Below, one piece after another: positions 4,341 to 21,925 of a stretch of DNA of 56,102 nt. Origin of the DNA: a virus (taxonomy: Duplodnaviria > Caudoviricetes); the IMG/VR virus record IMGVR_UViG_3300032272_000014, positions 1-56,102 of that record. One strand, given 5' to 3'. The translations under genes and the position numbers were made by a program. Position 1 is the stretch's first letter. The number at the start of each line of letters is the position of its first letter. The notes below the pieces were generated by a model. It was not told the origin of the DNA and ran no database searches. It saw nothing but the letters and a program-made list of their open reading frames with translations.

Positions 4341-4370
4341 TTAACTATACACTATTGTTATAGGCAATCG
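4341..4370 (+). other. attI-like terminal recombination site of array 1
   Basis: TTAACTATACACTATTGTTA is 19/20 identical to the reverse complement of 21881-21900; GTT core at 4357. Confidence 0.6.
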
Positions 4371-4390
4371 CCTTCGGACGCATCCAGAAA

Positions 4391-4573
4391 TCATAAAAGA
4401 TTTTTAAGGTCATTAACCACGGATTTTAGAATATTCATTTTAACTTGGTATTTTAAAGCTAAATCAAACTTTTTACTTTCAGCAAACCTTACTTGCATTT
4501 GACCTAATTCTAAAATCCTTAGTTCGTAACGTTTAATTATCTTTAGTAATTTATCAATGTTTATTTCTTTCAT
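4391..4573 (-). CDS. Cassette hypothetical protein
   Basis: Bracketed by perfect 14-bp IR GTTATAGGCAATCG (4357) / CGATTGCCTATAAC (4606). Confidence 0.65.
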   Translation of the reverse strand: MKEINIDKLLKIIKRYELRILELGQMQVRFAESKKFDLALKYQVKMNILKSVVNDLKNLL

Positions 4574-4859
4574 AACAAATCTTTTATAATTTTCCTCTGT
4601 ATGCTCGATTGCCTATAACGCTCACGGTAAGGCTGCGCATCGGCAACTGTCAAGGATTACTTGACAGTTCATTTATAAACCGAAGGCAACAGCATATAAC
4701 ATAGTATATGAACTATAGATGCGAAGCCTATGCTCTAACCGTGTATGCTTCGCATCCACAGAGCATATACCGTGAGCGTTGTAGGTAATGGCGCATACGT
4801 GTTACTCACTCATACGCTTTAGGTGCGCCACTACCCACAACACGGTATATACATAATCA

Positions 4860-5279
4860 CTAATATTCGTCTTCGTCAGTAAAAGCATCTAAAATTGGCT
4901 TCCAGTTTGCGATAGTTCCAGTTTCGTCAACGTCCATAATAATGTAGTCGCCATAACCGTTTTCTTTTGGACTCATTATCTTTGGTACGTAATCGTCAAT
5001 CTCTTTTACTAACATTTGGTTATCATCCAAAAGTCTGTACCTACCATCATCGCAAACTTTGTAGTGTATTTCAGCTTTTGTACCCTCAACCCAGTTAAGT
5101 ATTTTTCCAGTTTCAATGTTTATTAATGGACACCAGTTTCCACCGCTTCTACAAGGTATTAATTTACCTGTTTCATCTTCATTACCGTTTACTGTGGCAT
5201 CTTCCCAATACCTAACACCTGCCTCTACTTGCAAATACTTAACTTCAAATTCTCGTTTAATTTTTAATTCTACTTTCAT
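4860..5279 (-). CDS. Hypothetical phage protein (VRYWEDATVNG) inside an attC loop
   Basis: ORF lies between arms 4844-4860 and 5321-5337. Confidence 0.75.
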   Translation of the reverse strand: MKVELKIKREFEVKYLQVEAGVRYWEDATVNGNEDETGKLIPCRSGGNWCPLINIETGKILNWVEGTKAEIHYKVCDDGRYRLLDDNQMLVKEIDDYVPKIMSPKENGYGDYIIMDVDETGTIANWKPILDAFTDEDEY

Positions 5280-5489
5280 TTTACTTTCGTTTTTATAATT
5301 AAATTTTGTCTTAAATTCCCGTGACTATGCATATACCAATACGTTGTAGTTAATTGTGCCACATAGGTTTTTTACAATTCTTGCAACGGTTTCTATCTAT
5401 TTTATTTATACTGCACATCTTTGGTTGTTTACATTGGCACAACTTCACTTCGCTAATTTTGATATTTATAATTGCTTTATTCATAACTA

Positions 5490-5678
5490 TTAAATATCGT
5501 CTTTTATATCATCTCTAGTTATTACTTTCGCTTCGTTAACAACAACACTACCTATACGTAATTGCTCTTCAATACCATTTAATTTGTGTAGTAATTTAGA
5601 TTCTGCTTTTATAGATATTTCACCCATATTTTGAAGATGTAATACCTCATATCTTAATTCTTTAATCTTGTCTTTCAT
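5490..5678 (-). CDS. Junction-spanning small protein (EQLRIGSV|V)
   Basis: Site core 5544-5546 read as in-frame Val. Confidence 0.65.
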   Translation of the reverse strand: MKDKIKELRYEVLHLQNMGEISIKAESKLLHKLNGIEEQLRIGSVVVNEAKVITRDDIKDDI

Positions 5679-5775
5679 TTTTGTTATTTTAAGTTATTAA
5701 TCCACGCAACTACGTATAGCCTTTGCCGTTAGAGTGCATTAAAACGCACAATAACAATGTATAAACAAAATACGC

Positions 5776-5979
5776 TCATTCACCACCTAGCTTTTTTAGA
5801 TACCAATTAATATCTTTGCCAGTAGATTTTTTACGCATTTCATCTAAGTCATTTTTAACCTTTTCTTTATTTGTTAATATGTACTTTCTTAGTGCAATCT
5901 TAGCTTTATCAAATTTATCCATTCGCTTTACTTTGTTTATACCTTTGTTAGCGTTCATTGTCTTTTGCTTTTTAACCAT
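5776..5979 (-). CDS. Hypothetical protein in attC loop (true start probably internal MDKFDK)
   Basis: ORF track; loop 5753-5949. Confidence 0.5.
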   Translation of the reverse strand: MVKKQKTMNANKGINKVKRMDKFDKAKIALRKYILTNKEKVKNDLDEMRKKSTGKDINWYLKKLGGE

Positions 5980-6197
5980 TCTTTTAAGCTCTCGTTTGTT
6001 TCGGTGTTTAATGCTTCGTCAATCTTTCGTTCTAATTCTACCAAATCCAACGTAACGCTAACACGTTGTATAAGTAATTGCTTTTCACAGTAATTATCAG
6101 CCAACTTTACTAATTCATTAAACACATAGTCATTACCCAATAAGCTGTCAGGGTCAGGGTGTTCTGTTCTTACAAATTCTAAAAATCCTTTATACAT
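5955..6197 (-). CDS. Junction-spanning small protein (QLLIQRV|S)
   Basis: Core 6060-6062 in frame. Confidence 0.65.
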   Translation of the reverse strand: MYKGFLEFVRTEHPDPDSLLGNDYVFNELVKLADNYCEKQLLIQRVSVTLDLVELERKIDEALNTETNESLKEWLKSKRQ

Positions 6198-6291
6198 ATC
6201 TATTAAGTTTATTAATTATTCACGCAACTACTCATACAACCATACGTTGTAAAACATTAAAACGATTTTACAACACGGTATATAAAACAAA

Positions 6292-6507
6292 CTAACTTAG
6301 TGGTAATTTTTTAGCTATTAATTCATCCCAATGGTCAGTATGTGTTTTTATATCGTCAAACATTGTAATCGTGTACCAGCTTAATTCTGTTTTTGTAAAT
6401 AAGTTAAAGAAGTATTTTTTTTCAATATTCATTTTAACCTTTATTTCCCATTCACCATCACCAAAAAATCTCATTGGCATTTGCTCATAATTTAGTAAAG
6501 TTCTCAT
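6292..6507 (-). CDS. Hypothetical protein in attC loop
   Basis: ORF inside 6272-6554. Confidence 0.6.
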   Translation of the reverse strand: MRTLLNYEQMPMRFFGDGEWEIKVKMNIEKKYFFNLFTKTELSWYTITMFDDIKTHTDHWDELIAKKLPLS

Positions 6508-6564
6508 ATTAAGTTTTTATTTGTTTAATTGTTCGTTTCATATACCAATACGTTGTAAGTAATA

Positions 6565-6744
6565 CTAATCATCTAGTAAAAATCGAAGCAATTTTATTTG
6601 TGCGTTCAATTCGTTTCCTTCTTTTTGGTATTCTTGTACAACATCGTTATCTCTACAGTTTTCGTATTCATAATCAAACCACGCTACAATTAAAGCGTAT
6701 TCTTTTATTTTTCTTTCTAGTGCTTCTTTTACTTTTTTCTTCAT
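6565..6744 (-). CDS. Cassette hypothetical protein, 59 aa (MKKKVKEALERKIKEY...)
   Basis: Hand translation; fills cassette 6552-6784. Confidence 0.6.
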   Translation of the reverse strand: MKKKVKEALERKIKEYALIVAWFDYEYENCRDNDVVQEYQKEGNELNAQIKLLRFLLDD

Positions 6745-6982
6745 CTTATCAAGTTTTTAGTTATATACCCGTACTACTTACAACATCGTGTATATGGCAT
6801 TAAAACGACCACATACACACAGCGTTGTAATCACATTTAAAAACGTGTTACAACAATAAATATAAGTAATGCTTCACTTGGTTTTTAAACCATCTTTTGC
6901 AGATTATTACAGTTGTTGTCCATCCGAAAGGGTTATCTCTGTTTTTCATCGCACTACTCATATTCTTGTCATTAGCAAACAT

Positions 6983-7294
6983 TTATTTGTTAAGGTCTAT
7001 ACAAGTCGGGCAAGTTTCGTGTCCATCCATAAATTGATGCAATCCGCAAAAGTTGGTAAAACGTTTGCTAACATCGTGTATAGGTAATACTAACTTTCCT
7101 GCTTCATACAGAGTTATGTCTTTTAAATGCAAACAATCTTTAGGGTATTCATTCACGTAATAACTTTGCCCAACCAATTTGCAACTTTCACACATTCCTT
7201 CACCACAATACCATTCAATGTATTCAGGGCAACTTTTACTTCTACAAAATTCAGAGAAGTTGTTTACTTTATTGTTTGCTTTACTTTCGTTCAT
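6983..7294 (-). CDS. Junction-spanning Cys-rich protein (LPIHDV|S)
   Basis: Core 7070-7072 in frame; CxxC motifs on both sides. Confidence 0.65.
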   Translation of the reverse strand: MNESKANNKVNNFSEFCRSKSCPEYIEWYCGEGMCESCKLVGQSYYVNEYPKDCLHLKDITLYEAGKLVLPIHDVSKRFTNFCGLHQFMDGHETCPTCIDLNK

Positions 7295-7359
7295 AATTCA
7301 AAATTTTAGTTTTTTAATCCGTACTACCCATACACCAAACGTTACCAAACGTATACTGC

Positions 7360-7590
7360 TTAGTTACGCATATCATCAAAGTATCTTATTGCATCGTCAA
7401 TTGTTTCACAGTCTTTAAGTTCATTTACTATTTCACCAGCAGTAAACGATTTGGTAACACCGTGTATAGTTAATGCTCTAACCACCTTGTTAATTGTCTT
7501 TATATCTTCTGGAGGTATGTTATTTACCTTTCTGTGATTGTTTCTGTTTAAAATCTTTTTAAGCCTATTTGCTATCTCTGTTGCTGTCAT
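7360..7590 (-). CDS. Junction-spanning small protein (LTIHGV|T)
   Basis: Core 7456-7458 in frame. Confidence 0.65.
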   Translation of the reverse strand: MTATEIANRLKKILNRNNHRKVNNIPPEDIKTINKVVRALTIHGVTKSFTAGEIVNELKDCETIDDAIRYFDDMRN

Positions 7591-7661
7591 TGTTATATTT
7601 ATTAAATTAAGTTCTTAAAAGTCGCACTAACCATACACAAGTACCGTTGTAGTGCATTGTG

Positions 7662-7889
7662 CTAAATATCTTCTATCACTATTTTAGGTATGTGTTTAGT
7701 CACTTTAAACTTAACCCTAACGGTTTTACCATCTAAGTCGCACAACGTACCCTCTGGCACAACAACACTACCTATACGTAATTGCTCTTGTTCGCATTCA
7801 TTCCACACCCGTAACAAGGCTTGTTGCACACTTATATTATCAGGATAAGCTGTCTTACTTTGTATTTCTTTAATTCTGTCTGTTGTCAT
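7662..7889 (-). CDS. Junction-spanning small protein (EQLRIGSV|V)
   Basis: Core 7764-7766 in frame. Confidence 0.65.
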   Translation of the reverse strand: MTTDRIKEIQSKTAYPDNISVQQALLRVWNECEQEQLRIGSVVVPEGTLCDLDGKTVRVKFKVTKHIPKIVIEDI

Positions 7890-7957
7890 TATTTCTATTT
7901 ATTAAGTTTTGTGTTTAATTTTCCGCAACTATGCATAGCCTTGTCCATTAACTACAA

Positions 7958-8089
7958 TTATTTTTTTGCCTTCAACACGTGCTCACTCAGTACGTCTTGT
8001 ATGTAGTTTTTTAAGTCCTTATTTGCAAGCACAGCTAATATCTTTAAAGGCTGTACATCTTCTTCTTTTATGTCTATATTTTTACGCAT
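7958..8089 (-). CDS. Ribbon-helix-helix-like regulator, 43 aa
   Basis: Hand translation MRKNIDIKEEDVQPLKILAVLANKDLKNYIQDVLSEHVLKAKK. Confidence 0.55.
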   Translation of the reverse strand: MRKNIDIKEEDVQPLKILAVLANKDLKNYIQDVLSEHVLKAKK

Positions 8090-8225
8090 CTTTTAAATCT
8101 TTATAATAATCAACAATCTTTCTCGCTATTACAAAATACATCGTAGGCGAAATTGAAACACCACCATTTGCATAATCTCTTTGCTCGTGGTATTTCAATA
8201 TTTCTATAATTTTTTCTTCAGTCAT
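8082..8225 (-). CDS. Hypothetical protein, 47 aa
   Basis: Hand translation MTEEKIIEILKYHEQRDY...; tightly coupled to neighbours. Confidence 0.5.
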   Translation of the reverse strand: MTEEKIIEILKYHEQRDYANGGVSISPTMYFVIARKIVDYYKDLKDA

Positions 8226-8228
8226 AAT

Positions 8229-8393
8229 TTATTGTTTTGCGTAAGTTGGAATCTTACCAGTTAAATACATTTTGTAAGCAAATTTAGTAACACCTTCAAA
8301 ATCGTTTTCTATATTTTGTAAATAAGAATCTTGTGAGTTATTAAAGTTGATTCTTGCAGTTCTAAATTCGTTGTAAGTTAATTGAGTTTTCAT
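8229..8393 (-). CDS. Hypothetical protein, 54 aa
   Basis: Hand translation MKTQLTYNEFRTAR...; follows promoter. Confidence 0.55.
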   Translation of the reverse strand: MKTQLTYNEFRTARINFNNSQDSYLQNIENDFEGVTKFAYKMYLTGKIPTYAKQ

Positions 8394-8422
8394 AATTTTT
8401 ATATTTGTTTGTTATTGTTATA

Positions 8423-8455
8423 CAAATATACATTATATATTCCATATACACAACA
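8423..8455 (-). promoter_or_regulatory. Bacteroidota sigma70-type promoter inside a cassette
   Basis: TTG-N20-TATATTTG matches -33/-7 consensus. Confidence 0.6.
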
Positions 8456-8587
8456 TTTATTTAATAATAATTCAAAAAAGTTTTGCTATCGCAATATGCC
8501 AACCCTCAAAATAACAGTAGTTAACAACGTGTATAACGCATTTGCGAAAAGCAAACGACGATTATACACAAGACCGTTACCACACAT

Positions 8588-8920
8588 TTAATGTGATAAT
8601 TTACCCGTTAAGCAATAACCACTACCATCAGGCTTACAAGTTGATTCAGACCATATCATTATAAGTTCTACTTTACCTTCGTATTTTAGTTGTTTAAGAA
8701 GTACAGTTAATATATCAACTGGTATTTCAGTATCTTTAGAAATAGCCCATTTCAATTTACCGTAACCTTTGCTTAACTTTTTTAAGTCATTAATAATAGC
8801 TTCTTTCATTTCTGCAATAGCAGGAGAAAAACGTGTGCTAACAATGGGTATATCACATTGCTTAGTTTCTTCTTGTTTTCTAAGGTTTCTTAATAACATT
8901 CTAAAATTTCCTATTTTCAT
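8588..8920 (-). CDS. Junction-spanning protein (QCDIPIV|S); C-terminal part winged-helix-like
   Basis: Core 8840-8842 in frame; KWAISKDTEIPVDILTVLLKQLKYEGKV. Confidence 0.6.
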   Translation of the reverse strand: MKIGNFRMLLRNLRKQEETKQCDIPIVSTRFSPAIAEMKEAIINDLKKLSKGYGKLKWAISKDTEIPVDILTVLLKQLKYEGKVELIMIWSESTCKPDGSGYCLTGKLSH

Positions 8921-8966
8921 AATTTATTTATTTAATTCGCAACTAACCATACCCAAACCGTTGTAT

Positions 8967-9215
8967 TCAATTAAAATGCCCTCGTCCGCTGCAAGTCAAA
9001 CAACTCTGCTTATCATCGTAGCTTTCGCCTTCCACAATTCCTGTACCATCACAACAAAGGCATTTTAACTGTTCGCTTTGCAATACAACATTGTATAAAT
9101 CAAATAACTCATTAGTTGCTTGTTCAATGCTATAATTACCATACTTAAATTGTTCTAATACCTCTTTTATATCTTCTTTCATATCGTTACTTGTTTTATA
9201 CTTAGCCGTTAGCAA
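8967..9215 (-). CDS. Junction-spanning protein (LYNV|V) with DnaJ-type CxxCxGxG zinc motifs
   Basis: CLCCDGTG and CLTCSGRG; core 9087-9089 in frame; true start probably MKEDIK. Confidence 0.65.
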   Translation of the reverse strand: MLTAKYKTSNDMKEDIKEVLEQFKYGNYSIEQATNELFDLYNVVLQSEQLKCLCCDGTGIVEGESYDDKQSCLTCSGRGHFN

Positions 9216-9310
9216 ACATTAAAACGATTTGCTAACACGTGGTATAGTGCATAGCTTAGGTTCGTGCCTAATTCAATAGTTTGTGTTTGTTTAACCATAA
9301 TTAAAATATT

Positions 9311-9562
9311 TTAATATTCCTTTAGTTCTGGTTTTCGCTCAATCACGTTTAAATGATAGTTTTTTATTATTTGCCTAACAACCTCTTTGGTATCTTCTTT
9401 AAATAAAGGTTTCATTTTACGTTCCATAACGTATTGAAGCTGTATAGTATAATAGCTGTTAGTCCATATAGTATCAGTATCTAATTTACCAAAACTATCT
9501 TGTAAGTCGCTAAATCTTTGTATTTGTTTATCTACAATTATATTTATGAGTTCTTCCAACAT
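9311..9562 (-). CDS. Hypothetical protein in attC loop
   Basis: Bracketed by perfect 21-bp IR 9297-9317 / 9561-9581. Confidence 0.65.
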   Translation of the reverse strand: MLEELINIIVDKQIQRFSDLQDSFGKLDTDTIWTNSYYTIQLQYVMERKMKPLFKEDTKEVVRQIIKNYHLNVIERKPELKEY

Positions 9563-9641
9563 ATTAAAATATTTTAATTATTACTTCAGTTCTTAATTCA
9601 ATCTTCGTACATTTCAAGGCTACGCACCATACCACTAAACG

Positions 9642-9950
9642 TTAGGCGTAATAGCTTTGGTTACGTCTATCCCTTTCTTCATTTTTTAGGTAATAAGCAA
9701 AGTACCAGTTAGGATTTCTTCCTTCTAAAAAAGCTTCTAATATCTCTAAACGCATTTGCTTTCCTTGCCATCTTATTGCATACTCGTCTGTTCCTACACC
9801 AACACCAAAGCTACTGCCTCTCATATTAACATAGTGGTCTAAATCAGCTTTTACCTTTTTATAAAGTTTAAAGTATTTAACAAACTTGTTTTGCATAACA
9901 ACGTGTATATCACATTGCTTTTCCGTACTTAATTCTTTGTTTTGTTTCAT
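9642..9950 (-). CDS. Junction-spanning protein (QCDIHVV|M)
   Basis: Core 9897-9899 in frame; stop codon lies in the next core. Confidence 0.65.
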   Translation of the reverse strand: MKQNKELSTEKQCDIHVVMQNKFVKYFKLYKKVKADLDHYVNMRGSSFGVGVGTDEYAIRWQGKQMRLEILEAFLEGRNPNWYFAYYLKNEERDRRNQSYYA

Positions 9951-10294
9951 TTTATTAAGTTATTTGATTATTCAATATTTCTGTTTATTTATACGCAACG
10001 TGGCATACACAAAACGTTAGCCTTCATTGTCTTATCACTTAATCCGTGATTCTTGTTTAAGTTTTCTATGTATAGTTCAATCATACATAGTTCTTTTTTA
10101 CTTAATTTTCTGTCTATCATATCCATAATTTTACGATTTCATATTACCATTCGTTAGCTACAATGGCGCAATATGAAAACTAAGCATTACGTGTTAGTGC
10201 GCCACAGTAGCTAACACGTAATATAAAAAATTGCTTAGGTCAGTTCCTTGTAATTAAAGTCGTTGCTTAATCGAAGAAAATAAAAAGCTAGTTT

Positions 10295-10504
10295 CTACAA
10301 TTTTTGCAAATGTTCGCTCTTATAAGCATTTATCATTTTACCATTTTCAAGTTCAATCTGTATTTTAAATCCGTAAAAGGCATTTTTTTCAGTGCAATAA
10401 TCTTCTACATTTTTAACAGTTCCTTCCATTCCTATAAAGTTTCCACCTCTAAAAAACACTTTAGTTTCTTTTGGGAATATCTCAGAGGGCAGTCTATTTT
10501 TCAT
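10295..10504 (-). CDS. Small KOW/SH3-like protein in attC loop
   Basis: KVFFRGGNFIGMEGTVKNV pattern. Confidence 0.5.
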   Translation of the reverse strand: MKNRLPSEIFPKETKVFFRGGNFIGMEGTVKNVEDYCTEKNAFYGFKIQIELENGKMINAYKSEHLQKL

Positions 10505-10581
10505 CGCTTTTTATTTTTGGTTTATCTATTAATTTCGTACTTAATTCAGCAACTTTTCATATTACTATTCGTTATATACAA

Positions 10582-10806
10582 TTAAACCGAGGCTAGATTT
10601 TTTATTATATATATAGCTTCTGCTTCTTCAATGTATTGCTTATCAGTTTTGTTTTCTTGATAGTTTAGGTGTATTGGCTTAAACTTGTCTTTTTGGTGTA
10701 GTATTACGCTTTTAAACTCACTTATTACAGGGTTTCTGTCTATAATAATAAAAAATCTTGGGTCACTTAACCAAAGTGTTTTCGCTGTGCTTTTGTATTG
10801 TATCAT
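10582..10806 (-). CDS. Cassette hypothetical protein
   Basis: Between IR GTTATATACAATTAAACC / GGTTTAACAGTATATAAC. Confidence 0.6.
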   Translation of the reverse strand: MIQYKSTAKTLWLSDPRFFIIIDRNPVISEFKSVILHQKDKFKPIHLNYQENKTDKQYIEEAEAIYIIKNLASV

Positions 10807-10972
10807 TTGCTAATGTATTTTAAAGGTTTAACAGTATATAACACTGTATAAAGTCTATTGCTTTTTAAAGCTTTATCAATGTTTAATTATTATTTGTTGT
10901 TTATTATCCACAATTCAAAGGTTTTTGTTGTTTATAAGCAACATACCTTATACAATTCCGTTAGGGCAAATA

Positions 10973-18905: not shown

Positions 18906-19076
18906 ATGGATTTGACAAAGCAATTAAAAGAGAGAGGTGTTACTAAAGCAGAAATGTCTCGAAAAATGGGTGTTACATGGAATACGGTAAATAACTGGTG
19001 TAATACAGAATGGAAAAGATTGAGTTACACAACACGAGAAAGGATATGTAAACTGTTAGAGGTTGAGGTGTGCTAA
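18906..19076 (+). CDS. Cro/XRE-like HTH regulator, 56 aa
   Basis: Hand translation LKERGVTKAEMSRKMGVTWNTVNNW...ICKLLEV; not in ORF track. Confidence 0.75.
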   Translation: MDLTKQLKERGVTKAEMSRKMGVTWNTVNNWCNTEWKRLSYTTRERICKLLEVEVC

Positions 19077-19127
19077 CGTTAATCGTATATGATTTTTAAA
19101 AATTAATAAATAAAAACAGAATAAATT

Positions 19128-19349
19128 ATGTGGACAGAAGTAAGTAAACAGACACCAAAATCAGACCAAAACTATGAAGTGTATGGAATTGTAAATGTAG
19201 GTACTAAACACGAAACTAAACAGCAGTTTCAAGCCTACTTTAATACAGAAACCCAAAAATGGGAAAACCACAATTGGGATGATATAAACCCTTGCGATCA
19301 CGAAGTAAAGTTTTGGTATGATTTTGACCAAGTGAAAGAACCGATGTAA
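19128..19349 (+). CDS. Hypothetical protein (DUF551-like W...P...W pattern) in attC loop
   Basis: MWTEVSKQTP...VKFW. Confidence 0.6.
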   Translation: MWTEVSKQTPKSDQNYEVYGIVNVGTKHETKQQFQAYFNTETQKWENHNWDDINPCDHEVKFWYDFDQVKEPM

Positions 19350-19425
19350 TTTTTATTAATTATATACGGTGTTAGCATTAGCGAAGCGTAGTTTTAATTA
19401 ATGCTAACGTATTGGATAAGAATAG

Positions 19426-19683
19426 TTGCGAATTAAAAAACACAAAATTATGAGTTACGATGAAAACAGAATAAGCGACCAGATAGATGGAGGATTGCAC
19501 GAACAAGAGCAATTATTTTTATCTAGTGTTGTGCTTTCGTTGAATTACAACAAGGCAAAGGAATTATTTAATGAACTAATAAACGCTGGTAGAGATATGG
19601 AAAGACGAGATAATTTAAACCAACCATACATAAGCGGTGACGAATACTTACATAATGTGCTTGATAGGTACAAACCTCAATGA
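19426..19683 (+). CDS. Junction-spanning protein (LFLSSV|V)
   Basis: GTT 19528-19530 in frame. Confidence 0.65.
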   Translation: MRIKKHKIMSYDENRISDQIDGGLHEQEQLFLSSVVLSLNYNKAKELFNELINAGRDMERRDNLNQPYISGDEYLHNVLDRYKPQ

Positions 19684-19744
19684 AGCATAACAGACGAGTG
19701 TATGGTTAATAGCGTGGAATTAAGAACTAATTAAATAAAAAGAA

Positions 19745-19987
19745 ATGAATAAAAGTAAATTGTTAAAAGATTTGACAGAAGTTTATGATAATATGTCTGA
19801 TGATATAGACGAACCAAGAGAAGCACTAGGTTATGTGATAAGCGAATTAAAGCTATTAAATATACATGGTGTTATGCGTAGTTGTTTTGATGCTGGTGTA
19901 GAATACCAAAGGCAATTTGAAAGCAAACTATCTGAAAGCTATGACAAACCAAACTTTGAAGAATGGTATCAAAATAATTACGCATAA
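19745..19987 (+). CDS. Junction-spanning protein (LNIHGV|M)
   Basis: GTT 19871-19873 in frame. Confidence 0.65.
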   Translation: MNKSKLLKDLTEVYDNMSDDIDEPREALGYVISELKLLNIHGVMRSCFDAGVEYQRQFESKLSESYDKPNFEEWYQNNYA

Positions 19988-20087
19988 CGTGCCGATTGTA
20001 TGGCACGTATGAGGCACGAATATGGGCTATACAATATGTTAGCCATCTGGCGCGGGTTAATATAACAAAACTTAATTAAACAACGAA

Positions 20088-20465
20088 ATGGAAGAAAAAA
20101 ATTTTAGAATAGGAAACTTAATAGAAGAGCCAAAAGGGTTTACACATAAAATAGGAAGAGTGGACGAACTATCCACACGGGTAAGGCACGGACTGAAAAT
20201 ATCAATACCACACCTTACTGGATTTGGATTTGTGGAAGACAATAACGGCAACTACTGGATAGACTTACAAACTCATTATTTAGAACTTATACCCTCAAAT
20301 GGGTATTGGTATCCCATATACGCCCAAGTGCCTGAAATGAGCCATGAAGATGAACAGCGAGTAAGTACAAATAGGATTGAGTTCGTACACGAATTACAGA
20401 ACTTGTTTTTTGCGTTAACTGGTACTGAACTTGAAATTAAGGCAGAGCGTAGCACTTGTGGCTAA
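20088..20465 (+). CDS. Cassette protein, RIGN...LQNLFFALTG family (paralog of 52296..52649)
   Basis: Shared N- and C-terminal motifs. Confidence 0.75.
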   Translation: MEEKNFRIGNLIEEPKGFTHKIGRVDELSTRVRHGLKISIPHLTGFGFVEDNNGNYWIDLQTHYLELIPSNGYWYPIYAQVPEMSHEDEQRVSTNRIEFVHELQNLFFALTGTELEIKAERSTCG

Positions 20466-20579
20466 CGTTGAGTGTATGAGCAGTAGCCTACACGAACCAA
20501 CCAAAGAGAGATAAAATTAAATATTAAACAACTGCAATAGTTAAAAAGCCTGGCAGCTATTGCTTATACACATTGTTAG

Positions 20580-20780
20580 GTGCTTTTAAAATTAATGAAA
20601 AATTTAACAGTAAAAGAGTTAATTGAACAATTGAAAAAGTTTGATGAGAATAAAGAAGTACAAATTGGTGCAGTAGGTTTTTCAAGTAAAGACAGTTGGG
20701 ATGCTCCACTTGATTTAGAAGAACTTACAGTAGATGAGTTTAAAGGAATTGTTAGGATAAACTTTAGTCTTTACGGTTAA
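20580..20780 (+). CDS. Cassette hypothetical protein (LTVKELIEQLKKFD)
   Basis: ORF track. Confidence 0.6.
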   Translation: MLLKLMKNLTVKELIEQLKKFDENKEVQIGAVGFSSKDSWDAPLDLEELTVDEFKGIVRINFSLYG

Positions 20781-20844
20781 TTTTTATTGCACTTAACGGC
20801 TAAGGCTATGAATAGTTTATTTACGGATTAAAAAAACAGAAACA

Positions 20845-21156
20845 ATGGAAGAAATAACAAAAGAATTAAATAGTGCTACAGAGTACTTACGAGCAATGAA
20901 AAAAAGCGGACACCATAAAGGTGATTGCGATAATATATTAATGCACCTTGCTAACATAGAGGACTTAGTAAATAAATTATTTATAGCCAATGTTAGCGTT
21001 TCGTTTATAGAACAAGTAAAAAAGCAAATAGAATACCACGAAGAACAAGAAACCAACCGAAGCAAGGTAAAAGATTATAGACAAGCAATATACCACGACA
21101 ACAGGCGAGGTGCTTTAGAGGACTTATTATTATGGATTAAGTTAAATGAACGCTAA
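20845..21156 (+). CDS. Junction-spanning protein (LFIANV|S)
   Basis: GTT 20992-20994 in frame. Confidence 0.65.
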   Translation: MEEITKELNSATEYLRAMKKSGHHKGDCDNILMHLANIEDLVNKLFIANVSVSFIEQVKKQIEYHEEQETNRSKVKDYRQAIYHDNRRGALEDLLLWIKLNER

Positions 21157-21202
21157 CGTATTGCTATATGATTAGTGCGGAATTTAAACACGAAATTTAA
21201 TT

Positions 21203-21535
21203 ATGAAAACGGAACTACGAGAAAAGGTTTGGAAGAAATATGATTGCAAATGTTCCTATTGTGGCGAAGATTTGCAATACAAGAAAATGCAAGTTGACCA
21301 CATAGAGGCTAAATACTTGGGAGGTAAAGACGATATTGAAAATTACAACCCATCTTGTAGGCAATGCAATTTCTATAAAAGTACATTTAGCCTTGAACAA
21401 TTTAAACAGCAATTAGCCACAATAACTGAAAGGATTAAGAAACCATTTATAGTAAGACTTGCAATGAAGTATGGTATTATTTCTTTCAAACCTTTTGATG
21501 GTAAATTTTACTATGAAAAACTGAACGAGCATTAA
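21203..21535 (+). CDS. HNH endonuclease inside attC loop
   Basis: CSYCG...VDH...ENYNPSCRQCNFYK. Confidence 0.85.
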   Translation: MKTELREKVWKKYDCKCSYCGEDLQYKKMQVDHIEAKYLGGKDDIENYNPSCRQCNFYKSTFSLEQFKQQLATITERIKKPFIVRLAMKYGIISFKPFDGKFYYEKLNEH

Positions 21536-21585
21536 TTATATAGCGTGTTGTAGCATCGTTTTAATGTGCTACAACGTTAAAATGT

Positions 21586-21873
21586 ATGGTTAGTTGCGTA
21601 GAATTAAATAATAAACTTAATAAAAATATAATGGATTCAAAAGAAATATTAAAAAGATACTGTAAAGCGAAGTATGGAAATGAAATAGTTATAAAAACCT
21701 ATGACATTCAAGAAATTAAGCAAATAATAGACTTTACACAGCAATTAAATATACATAGTGTTAGCCAACAACGTGAACTGTTAATTGGCTTATTGACAAA
21801 ACTTGAAAATGGTGGTGGAAGTGCCTTTATTGATAAAGAACAGATTGTAGATGATTACTTAAAAGCCAATTAA
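21586..21873 (+). CDS. Junction-spanning protein (LNIHSV|S); true start probably MDSKE
   Basis: GTT 21760-21762 in frame. Confidence 0.6.
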   Translation: MVSCVELNNKLNKNIMDSKEILKRYCKAKYGNEIVIKTYDIQEIKQIIDFTQQLNIHSVSQQRELLIGLLTKLENGGGSAFIDKEQIVDDYLKAN

Positions 21874-21925
21874 TTGTGGCTAACAATAGTATATAGTTAA
21901 CTAACAATCACATAACTAATTGATA
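21871..21925 (-). other. attI-like terminal site of array 2 plus IHF-consensus box
   Basis: Matches 4341-4360; TATCAATTAGTTA on - strand at 21913-21925. Confidence 0.6.

Follow-up and report, generated by a model that had tools for sequence, protein, structure and literature searches.

Why should a phage keep its small genes inside the loops of paired sites? The question is raised by the 56,102-bp stretch of DNA analysed here (referred to below as the window), which is the complete record of a marine phage of the class Caudoviricetes with direct terminal repeats at its ends. A first-pass annotation of this sequence had pointed to complete open reading frames (ORFs) lying between the two arms of single sites, which it took to be attC sites of the kind found in integrons. 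In the analysis presented here, these arms are found to belong to two alternating classes of helix, designated S and F, about 45 of which occupy about 9.4 kb and tile two arrays of small ORFs, array 1 on the minus strand (4357-10960) and array 2 on the plus strand (19077-21884). Each helix is closed by a stem of its own sequence and is exchanged between phages of Bacteroidota together with the cargo that it encloses.

Two alternating classes of helix

The F class has the form GGTATATGAnTAGTGC...GCATTAnTTATATACC; interleaved with it is the S class, GTTRnnnnn...nnnnnYAAC, which the first-pass annotation had overlooked. In the direction of the genes, the elements follow one another in the order S' (nnnnnYAAC), G with a further 4-5 nt, F (GGTATATGAnTAGTGC), cargo, F' (GCATTAnTTATATACC), nT, S (GTTRnnnnn), cargo or a short loop, and again S'. 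F pairs with the next F' and S with the next S', and since each pair has a sequence of its own, every arm finds only its own partner. The S stems are perfect, site-specific and 9-18 bp long. Perfect GTT...AAC stems of at least 9 bp occur 23 times in the window versus 5.4 +/- 2.4 times in shuffled sequences, and 12 of the 23 carry the conserved outer boxes. A few arms have no partner, among them the flanks that follow 10153 and 19408, and the S at 9902/9641 is weak.

The loops are of four kinds. Empty loops have the core GTTTTAAT, often extended to TCGTTTTAATG, and are found in the S hairpins 6246-6274, 9208-9236 and 21547-21575 as well as in the F-type hairpin 6785-6823. Loops with a whole ORF occur in both classes, in F helices around 4860..5279, 6292..6507, 9311..9562, 10295..10504, 19128..19349 and the HNH gene, and in S helices around 4391..4573, 6565..6744, 10582..10806 and 20088..20465. 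About ten genes of the window are split between neighbouring loops, an F loop holding the 5' part and the next S loop the 3' part, which means that the F'-nT-S joint is translated. The fourth kind is a structured insert in which no ORF of at least 50 aa is listed (4620-4777). The reading frame of the joint is constant and gives I-H/Y-x-V; a single frame is used because TAA and TAG stops close the other two frames of the arms, while in an empty site the TAA of the loop closes the third frame as well. The peptide-like motif I-H-x-V was considered as a possible protein domain and was rejected, as the lone shared frame follows from these stops.

Pairing of the arms is site-specific

Arm pairing was computed with RNAduplex for 30-nt versus 26-nt arms, with the same 3' flank and the next 5' flank further on serving as the control. 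The proposal that complete ORFs lie between the arms of one site holds for all six ORFs that had been named, with cognate values of -20.0 to -30.9 kcal/mol versus -5.0 to -11.8 kcal/mol for the next neighbour. Individually, the values for the cognate and the next 5' flank are -25.8 and -11.8 kcal/mol for ORF 4860..5279, -21.5 and -8.0 for 6292..6507, -30.9 and -5.9 for 9311..9562, -21.3 and -8.2 for 10295..10504, -20.0 and -5.0 for 19128..19349, and -22.2 and -6.5 for the HNH gene 21203..21535. The six sites span 278-502 nt, with the whole ORFs inside. When longer arms were used, 27 neighbour pairs had a mean of -25.9 kcal/mol versus -14.6 (sd 4.3) in 729 non-neighbour pairs (Mann-Whitney p = 8e-15), the S hairpin pairs (mean -20.7 kcal/mol) being weaker than these neighbour pairs of F geometry. 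All F neighbours in the window fall between -15 and -31 kcal/mol and second neighbours between -3.5 and -12.7 kcal/mol, except for two pairs in which the F' arms are similar to the cognate one.

An explanation of these arm pairs by generic complementarity of consensus flanks, with the GTT...AAC hairpins as the sole real units, is ruled out, since pairing between neighbours is both site-specific and stronger. The arms are confirmed as real, structured, site-specific and, as described below, strand-specific. The other structural claims of the first-pass annotation also stand: gene-free sites, given as 45-123 bp, measure 40-119 nt; the HNH gene (PF01844, E = 6e-11) is loop cargo, inside the F helix 21158..21546; and each unit offers two slots for cargo, as F loops and S loops both hold it.

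Helices of the two arrays

The helices are listed below with their coordinates and strand; free energies (dG) are in kcal/mol and come from the arm-duplex computation. The sites that had been proposed earlier are marked as such.

Array 1
4357..4619, minus: S helix, 14-bp perfect stem, enclosing the whole gene 4391..4573; dG -21.7, loop 235 nt
4620..4777, minus: F-type helix with a 138-nt structured insert, no listed ORF of at least 50 aa; 31-nt arms 87% complementary, dG -26.1
4778..4841, minus: S helix, 18 bp, loop 28 nt; dG -31.4
4842..5342, minus: F helix, gene 4860..5279 (proposed earlier, as a 507-bp site); dG -25.8
5547..5727, minus: F helix, leader and 5' part of ORF 5490..5678; dG -21.5
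5728..5755, minus: S hairpin, short loop GTTTTAAT; dG -9.3
5756..5946, minus: F helix, most of ORF 5776..5979; dG -17.6
5947..6062, minus: S helix, 9-bp perfect stem, 3' part of ORF 5955..6197; dG -17.3
6063..6245, minus: F helix, leader and 5' part of ORF 5955..6197; dG -25.0
6246..6274, minus: canonical empty S hairpin, loop TCGTTTTAATG; depth peak, homology ends at 6245/6286 in other metagenomes
6275..6551, minus: F helix, gene 6292..6507 (proposed earlier); dG -21.5
6552..6784, minus: S helix, 10-bp perfect stem, whole gene 6565..6744; dG -18.0, contigs of two other runs begin their match at 6551/6552
6785..6823, minus: empty F-type hairpin, loop TCGTTTTAATG, seen in the sequence; dG -24.9
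6824..6854, minus: empty S hairpin; dG -10.6
6855..6970, minus: F helix, 33-codon mini-ORF; dG -18.9, 6850-6971 matched without mismatch by a contig of run X4
6971..7072, minus: S helix, 3' part of ORF 6983..7294; dG -15.2
7073..7340, minus: F helix, leader and 5' part of ORF 6983..7294; dG -24.5
7341..7458, minus: S helix, 9-bp perfect stem, 3' part of ORF 7360..7590; dG -16.6
7459..7645, minus: F helix, leader and 5' part of ORF 7360..7590; dG -23.9
7646..7766, minus: S helix, 3' part of ORF 7662..7889; dG -10.6
7767..7946, minus: F helix, leader and 5' part of ORF 7662..7889; dG -15.7
8576..8842, minus: S helix, most of ORF 8588..8920; dG -14.9
8843..8959, minus: F helix, leader and start of ORF 8588..8920; dG -18.0
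8960..9089, minus: S helix, 8 bp, 3' part of ORF 8967..9215; dG -8.5
9090..9207, minus: F helix, 5' part of ORF 8967..9215; dG -14.8
9208..9236, minus: canonical empty S hairpin; homology ends at 9207/9208
9237..9640, minus: F helix, gene 9311..9562 (proposed earlier); dG -30.9
9903..10015, minus: F helix, leader and start of ORF 9642..9950; dG -19.5
10153..10215, minus: S helix, 45-nt structured loop; dG -27.9, conserved in phi46:3 and Ingeline_1
10216..10570, minus: F helix, gene 10295..10504 (proposed earlier); dG -21.3, arms shared with two other phages, in which the ORFs are unrelated
10571..10842, minus: S helix, whole gene 10582..10806; dG -17.1, arms shared with phi46:3, in which the ORF is unrelated
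10843..10959, minus: gene-free F helix; dG -21.9

Array 2
19078..19370, plus: F helix, gene 19128..19349 (proposed earlier); dG -20.0
19371..19408, plus: S hairpin, 10 bp, 18-nt loop; dG -15.1
19692..19870, plus: F helix, leader and 5' part of ORF 19745..19987; dG -15.7
19871..19988, plus: S helix, 18 paired positions, 3' part of ORF 19745..19987; dG -20.3
20038..20466, plus: S helix, whole gene 20088..20465; dG -16.9
20467..20574, plus: gene-free F helix; dG -26.3
20575..20797, plus: S helix, ORF 20580..20780; dG -12.3
20798..20991, plus: F helix, leader and 5' part of ORF 20845..21156; dG -27.1
20992..21157, plus: S helix, 9-bp perfect stem, 3' part of ORF 20845..21156; dG -16.1
21158..21546, plus: F helix, HNH gene 21203..21535 (PF01844; proposed earlier); dG -22.2
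21547..21575, plus: canonical empty S hairpin
21576..21759, plus: F helix, leader and 5' part of ORF 21586..21873; dG -15.3
21760..21884, plus: S helix, 3' part of ORF 21586..21873; dG -12.7

Spread of the family in phages of Bacteroidota

The family was sought with the pattern GTT-N6-TCGTTTTAATG-N6-AAC, in which pairing between the two N6 stretches was not demanded. At least 120 stretches of IMG/VR viral contigs match it, and among the viral matches listed 121 of 124 are hairpins (at least 5 of 6 N6 positions complementary), 99 of them with all six. In bacterial contigs, 55 of 123 matches are hairpins, and the remaining 68, which have 0-4 pairs, provide a measure of chance; the hairpin-bearing contigs belong mostly to Bacteroidota (Flavobacteriaceae, Bacteroidales and others), together with some metagenome-assembled genomes that carry other labels. 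The stems are diverse, 162 unique sites having 32 distinct sequences. Upstream of GTT, 158 unique sites show strong conservation of 16 nt in a fixed register (A-16 0.87, T-15 0.94, T-8 0.92, A-7 0.96, T-1 0.99) and a stop codon stands at -21 in about 40% of them, while the sequence 3' of AAC has no conservation in register.

Long loops are as frequent as short ones. The 2.03 Mb of fetched loci contain 294 candidate 5' S arms, of which 187 have a perfect 9-nt partner no more than 1200 nt downstream; the loop is at most 12 nt in 94 of these and longer in 93 (101-300 nt in 49, 301-700 nt in 27), and the controls for long-loop pairing gave 2 sites with scrambled stems and 5 on the wrong side. Among the 89 unique S sites with loops of more than 40 nt, 81 carry a sense ORF that fills 80% or more of the loop, and in 49 the ORF opens at an ATG of its own, 8-38 nt past the stem. 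Stop codons either gather 5-7 nt short of the 3' arm or are supplied by the TAA within YAAC. The F class behaves likewise: 142 of 227 F' arms (62.6%) have a partner at -20 kcal/mol or lower in their own upstream 870 nt versus 0.4% on another locus (p = 4e-35), 68 of the 142 partners lying within 100 nt and 74 at 100-900 nt, and AAC is found no more than 14 nt before the start of the F arm in 136 of the 142. The family is common in phages of Bacteroidota, and genes in loops are the rule rather than a peculiarity of this window. No description of the element was found in the literature searched, subscription journals and supplementary files lying outside its reach.

Exchange of modules between phages

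After identical duplicates had been collapsed, 33 pairs of sites on different contigs shared the upstream 40 nt and the hairpin; 32 of these are unrelated downstream, with the break at the end of AAC. Contigs of four metagenomes match the array mainly at hairpins, with depth peaks at 6172-6405 and 9214-9447, and their matches end or start at 6245/6286, 9207/9208, 6551/6552, 10570 and 6850/6971, all of which are S'-F or F'-S joints. The expectation of the first-pass annotation that the sites mark points of rearrangement agrees with these breaks in homology between genomes, which fall at helix junctions. The same arms also surround different cargo in other phages, as it had suggested might be found. 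Two phages of two other families, phi46:3 and Ingeline_1, share the arms, leader and trailer of the slot 10216-10570 but have unrelated ORFs in it, and phi46:3 also has the S arms of 10571-10842 with an ORF between them that is unrelated to that of the window, so that like arms with unrelated ORFs are seen in three phage families. Several metagenome contigs retain both flanks of 10295..10504 and skip the gene. No empty and filled version of one site with both flanks alike was found; when a match on the 5' side alone was required, five pairs with different loop lengths were obtained. The helix with its cargo is the exchanged unit, and homology ends at the S'-F and F'-S joints.

In five loci (L024, L045, L062, L100 and L109), S hairpins that differ in their stems and in the genes upstream of them all lead into one and the same module, a second hairpin with the TCGTTTTAATG loop, which is a clear case of module reassortment between AAC and G.

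The folding strand and transcription

On the sense strand, the 142 F helices have 317 G.U pairs, 292 of them with the G in the upstream arm, and just one A.C mismatch; G.U pairs, which sit at fixed positions, make up about 12% of pairs. Under RNA parameters, the more stable fold lies on the sense rather than the antisense strand in 130 of the 158 sites, by a mean of -3.7 kcal/mol (p = 8e-17); under DNA parameters, the advantage of the sense strand shrinks to -0.45 kcal/mol. Single mismatches in S stems comprise 15 G.T, 5 A.C and 7 others. The excess of G.U pairs and the bias in folding indicate that the structure is selected on the coding-sense strand only, with which RNA fits best and single-stranded DNA of the sense strand is also compatible.

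Transcription signals are not associated with the helices. Sigma-70-like promoters are not enriched in the array (28 versus 39.9 +/- 6.9 expected from shuffles), the Bacteroidota consensus TTG-N19-TAnnTTTG is found at none of the S or F sites, and none of five terminator-like hits corresponds to an S or F hairpin on the gene strand, the stems not being followed by a T-run. The Bacteroidota -7 motif TAnnTTTG occurs off the helices, upstream of or within the arrays, at 8430 (minus), 11757 (minus), 18834/18842 (minus) and 18882 (plus), the last of which precedes ORF 18906..19076, the first ORF of array 2. The position of these motifs and the lack of signals at the sites suggest transcription of the arrays as operons that run across the sites.

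Genomic context and local features

The small-gene region adjoins large ORFs for a primase/helicase, a helicase and a repair exonuclease. Several families of Cellulophaga phages match the window at 82-95% identity, in single genes or intergenic pieces only; the replication module has no blastn match among GenBank phages, and a protein-based search for relatives returned five loci, none with DNA-level synteny in the arrays. A tRNA scan of the window found none, and an Rfam scan gave no match at the gathering threshold, the sole hit at E up to 5 being a spurious microRNA match.

Several helices have features of their own. A perfect 21-nt inverted repeat composed of A and T only (9297-9317/9561-9581) brackets gene 9311..9562 inside the F helix 9237-9640 and forms a third, innermost layer of pairing. 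S-loop cargo of about 28-45 nt with an inner stem GGCGCA...TGCGCC recurs at 10153-10215 and 4778-4841 and in loci L004 (phi46:3), L068 and L086. The 138-nt insert at 4620-4777, which contains several nested hairpins between F-type 31-nt arms that are 87% complementary, has no match in Rfam and may be a small RNA. Between 7947 and 8528, a weak S-type pair (dG -11.3) would span three genes and an internal promoter-like region; this region is absent from several metagenome contigs, with joints 8011-8071 to 8419-8423. Homologues of 9642..9950 in phi19:1 (gp015) and phi10:1 (gp007) (loci L001 and L002; 82-86% DNA identity) have no arm motif near the start, reading CNKLVMQN where the window has CDIHVVMQN in a comparison made by eye, and the arm has thus apparently been either added to or lost from a coding sequence that already existed.

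Recombinases near the elements

In the complete genome, no match was found to PF00589 (tyrosine recombinase; the positive control matched in 14 of 14 genomes), to PF00239 (serine recombinase) or to PF01797 (Y1/HUH transposase, the cognate of REP/RAYT and IS200/IS605). In 14 of 170 element-bearing loci (L090:1926-3002, L003:3163-4080 and 12 further), a tyrosine recombinase of 240-296 aa, of Xer/IntI-like type, lies beside the last S site, and this is the fourth commonest protein cluster near the elements. Its best NCBIfam models are XerA and integron integrase, with scores below their cut-offs (172.6 bits versus 220 and 155.5 versus 265). In 11 of these loci, an S' arm (...YAAC) and, after it, TAnnATAT lie within the 130 nt upstream of the gene, an arrangement that could be an att site or a link to the mobility of modules; the recombinase may simply belong to an ordinary int-attP module of temperate phages. 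Ingeline carries a recombinase of 263 aa.

What the helices may do

The reading that we favour, to which we give even confidence for and against, is that the helices act in RNA, as sense-strand helices that would close exchangeable gene modules within polycistronic transcripts of accessory genes. Each cistron or module would be closed into a stem-bounded loop by its own address-coded stem, and tandem modules would in this way avoid mispairing. The benefit might lie in the protection of ends, in the insulation of folding or in processing by a double-strand RNase, RNase III not being encoded by the phage genome itself. Recombination in the conserved joints would then account for the exchange of modules in DNA, and because both arms must travel with the cargo, the helix and its cargo become the unit of exchange. 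RNase III stems lie between the early genes of T7, and long-range stems bracket 16S and 23S rRNA. The phage helices resemble these in their predicted 16-22 bp with internal loops, in being confined to the sense strand and in their location between or around units, but differ in that many arms lie inside ORFs, that about 45 helices in about 9.4 kb are far more per operon, and that sequence conservation extends to the apical loop and the F' arm.

Several observations weigh against this reading. In about ten genes of the window and in 25 of the 89 long-loop S sites, the ORF reads through F'-S and enters the loop through the arm, and as cutting a helix that is crossed in this way would sever that mRNA, simple processing by RNase III does not suit such cases. 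The conserved GTTR and YAAC at the exact joints and the conserved short loop resemble sequences recognized by a protein, and the F' arm is strongly conserved while the F arm is looser, which pairing alone does not explain. Single-stranded DNA, too, tolerates G.T wobbles, and where a gene is oriented with replication its sense strand serves as the lagging-strand template, so that the strand bias is compatible with a role in DNA. The presence of the Xer/IntI-like recombinase beside the last S site of some arrays is to be added to these points.

The main rival, which we regard as rather unlikely, is an integron-like system acting on folded single-stranded DNA, in which the arms would be sites read by their structure, with crossover between YAAC and G and between T and GTTR by a small enzyme of Xer/IntI type supplied by the phage or the host; the arrays of the window would then be recombinase-less clusters comparable to the integrase-less attC clusters of bacteria. 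Typical attC sites are about 55-140 nt long and non-coding, their R''/R' boxes (RYYYAAC / GTTRRRY) pair at the base of the folded site, and the strand that folds and is recombined is the bottom strand, antisense to the cassette ORFs. As in integron arrays, the small ORFs of the phage are co-oriented and mostly promoterless, the imperfect palindromes that separate them conserve structure rather than sequence and fold well on a single strand, AAC and GTT are conserved at the module joints where homology breaks exactly after AAC, and the cargo between like sites differs from genome to genome; the recombinase genes with their upstream S' arm and TAnnATAT also count in its favour. However, the genome lacks an integron integrase, attI and Pc as well as the three recombinase and transposase families searched for, and the recombinase genes of other loci are co-directional at the end of the array, as in ordinary int-attP modules. 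The six bases beyond YAAC/GTTR across the F helix are complementary at 2.25 positions versus 2.12 +/- 0.11 in permutations (n = 136), so that YAAC/GTTR alone can pair there and no 7-bp R box can form. Helices of two classes alternate in the phage, where an integron has a single site for each cassette, the cargo lies within the helices, ORFs cross the arms, and the sense strand folds, in helices rich in G.U at fixed positions whose large sense advantage appears under RNA parameters only. The loops of 100-900 nt exceed by far those of any attC known to us, and pairing over such a range is unlikely on DNA coated with single-stranded-DNA-binding protein. The identity of the sites as attC, as proposed by the first-pass annotation, is therefore not upheld, and the arrays are not an integron.

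Two further explanations are improbable. In the first, the sites would be regulatory cassettes (a terminator stem-loop with a promoter) resembling the promoter early stem-loops (PeSLs) of T4-type phages, shuffled solely by homologous recombination between conserved copies. PeSLs are described as consisting of a sigma-70 early promoter and a local terminator hairpin (PMC2839356) and are small intergenic stem-loop motifs of variable accessory regions, found at the boundaries of inserted, deleted or replaced genes (PMC2839356, PMC4122927). The phage helices likewise sit between small accessory genes, at module boundaries and at the borders of gene insertions, deletions and replacements, but the predicted promoter and terminator signals given above do not coincide with them. 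AGTAGTTGCG, which was considered as a Bacteroidota -7 box, was rejected as such, being the inner end of the F arm, which pairs with GCATTA of F' and covaries with it. Long-range, site-specific pairing around whole ORFs has no place in a model of terminator and promoter, and the helices are common to several families of Bacteroidota phages, whereas PeSLs are described within one phage group. According to the second explanation, to which we give equally little credit, the arms would be terminal inverted repeats of selfish palindromic elements, of the type of repetitive extragenic palindromes (REP), miniature inverted-repeat transposable elements (MITE) or foldback transposons, which occasionally capture genes. 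Hundreds of copies over unrelated phages, the depth peaks at hairpins in four metagenomes and the occurrence of both empty and filled versions would suit such elements, but the Y1, serine and tyrosine families are absent from the genome, and the copies are strictly co-directional with the genes and tightly placed around ORFs. The arms match within a copy and differ between copies (32 stem variants), which indicates selection on pairing and not on a sequence bound by a transposase, and no two loci were found that share both flanks and differ in loop length.

A more distant likeness is offered by the mitochondrial genome of Polytomella magna, in which palindromic genes are reported to form inverted-repeat units that can fold as stem-loops (PMC3787674). 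Coding regions are in both cases systematically embedded in units that form stem-loops, with start sites near the loop, but the genes of Polytomella are duplicated in inverted orientation, while the phage arms are short, unique and placed around single-copy ORFs. The S hairpins may also bear some resemblance to the CRISPR repeats of Cas13b or type II-C systems (GTTG...CAAC). The likenesses to integrons and PeSLs each fail at least one defining test, and those to RNase III stems and Polytomella are incomplete.

Implications for phages of Bacteroidota

It is possible, although we put it forward tentatively, that the helices constitute an undescribed modular grammar in phages of Bacteroidota, in which each accessory gene or segment encoding a protein domain is carried in its own address-coded, one-strand stem and may be plugged into unrelated phage families. 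In its boldest form, this grammar would be a phage counterpart of the integron, with the cargo inside the folded sites and an Xer/IntI-like recombinase moving modules at the junction of AAC and G; alternatively, it would operate purely at the level of RNA, through cistron-closing helices with conserved G.U pairs that are recognized by a host factor. Compared with structured cassette boundaries between cistrons, what stands out is that the cargo lies inside the stems, that two classes of helix alternate and that many phage families share them.

The accessory regions of phages show the fastest turnover of genes of unknown function, including those directed against host defence, and the mechanism by which such genes are swapped is poorly understood outside T4-type phages. 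The element provides a module boundary that can be read from sequence in Bacteroidota phages, both those of marine Flavobacteriia and those of gut Bacteroidales. It could sharpen gene calling, as the arms frame small ORFs, their starts and their stops, and could permit the cataloguing of cargo, and it also calls for caution, since attC-like AAC...GTT palindromes can arise outside integrons. It raises the questions of whether long-range helices that enclose cistrons may be a general organization of polycistronic mRNA in a phylum that does not use Shine-Dalgarno initiation, and of whether an integron-like cassette mechanism may operate in phages.

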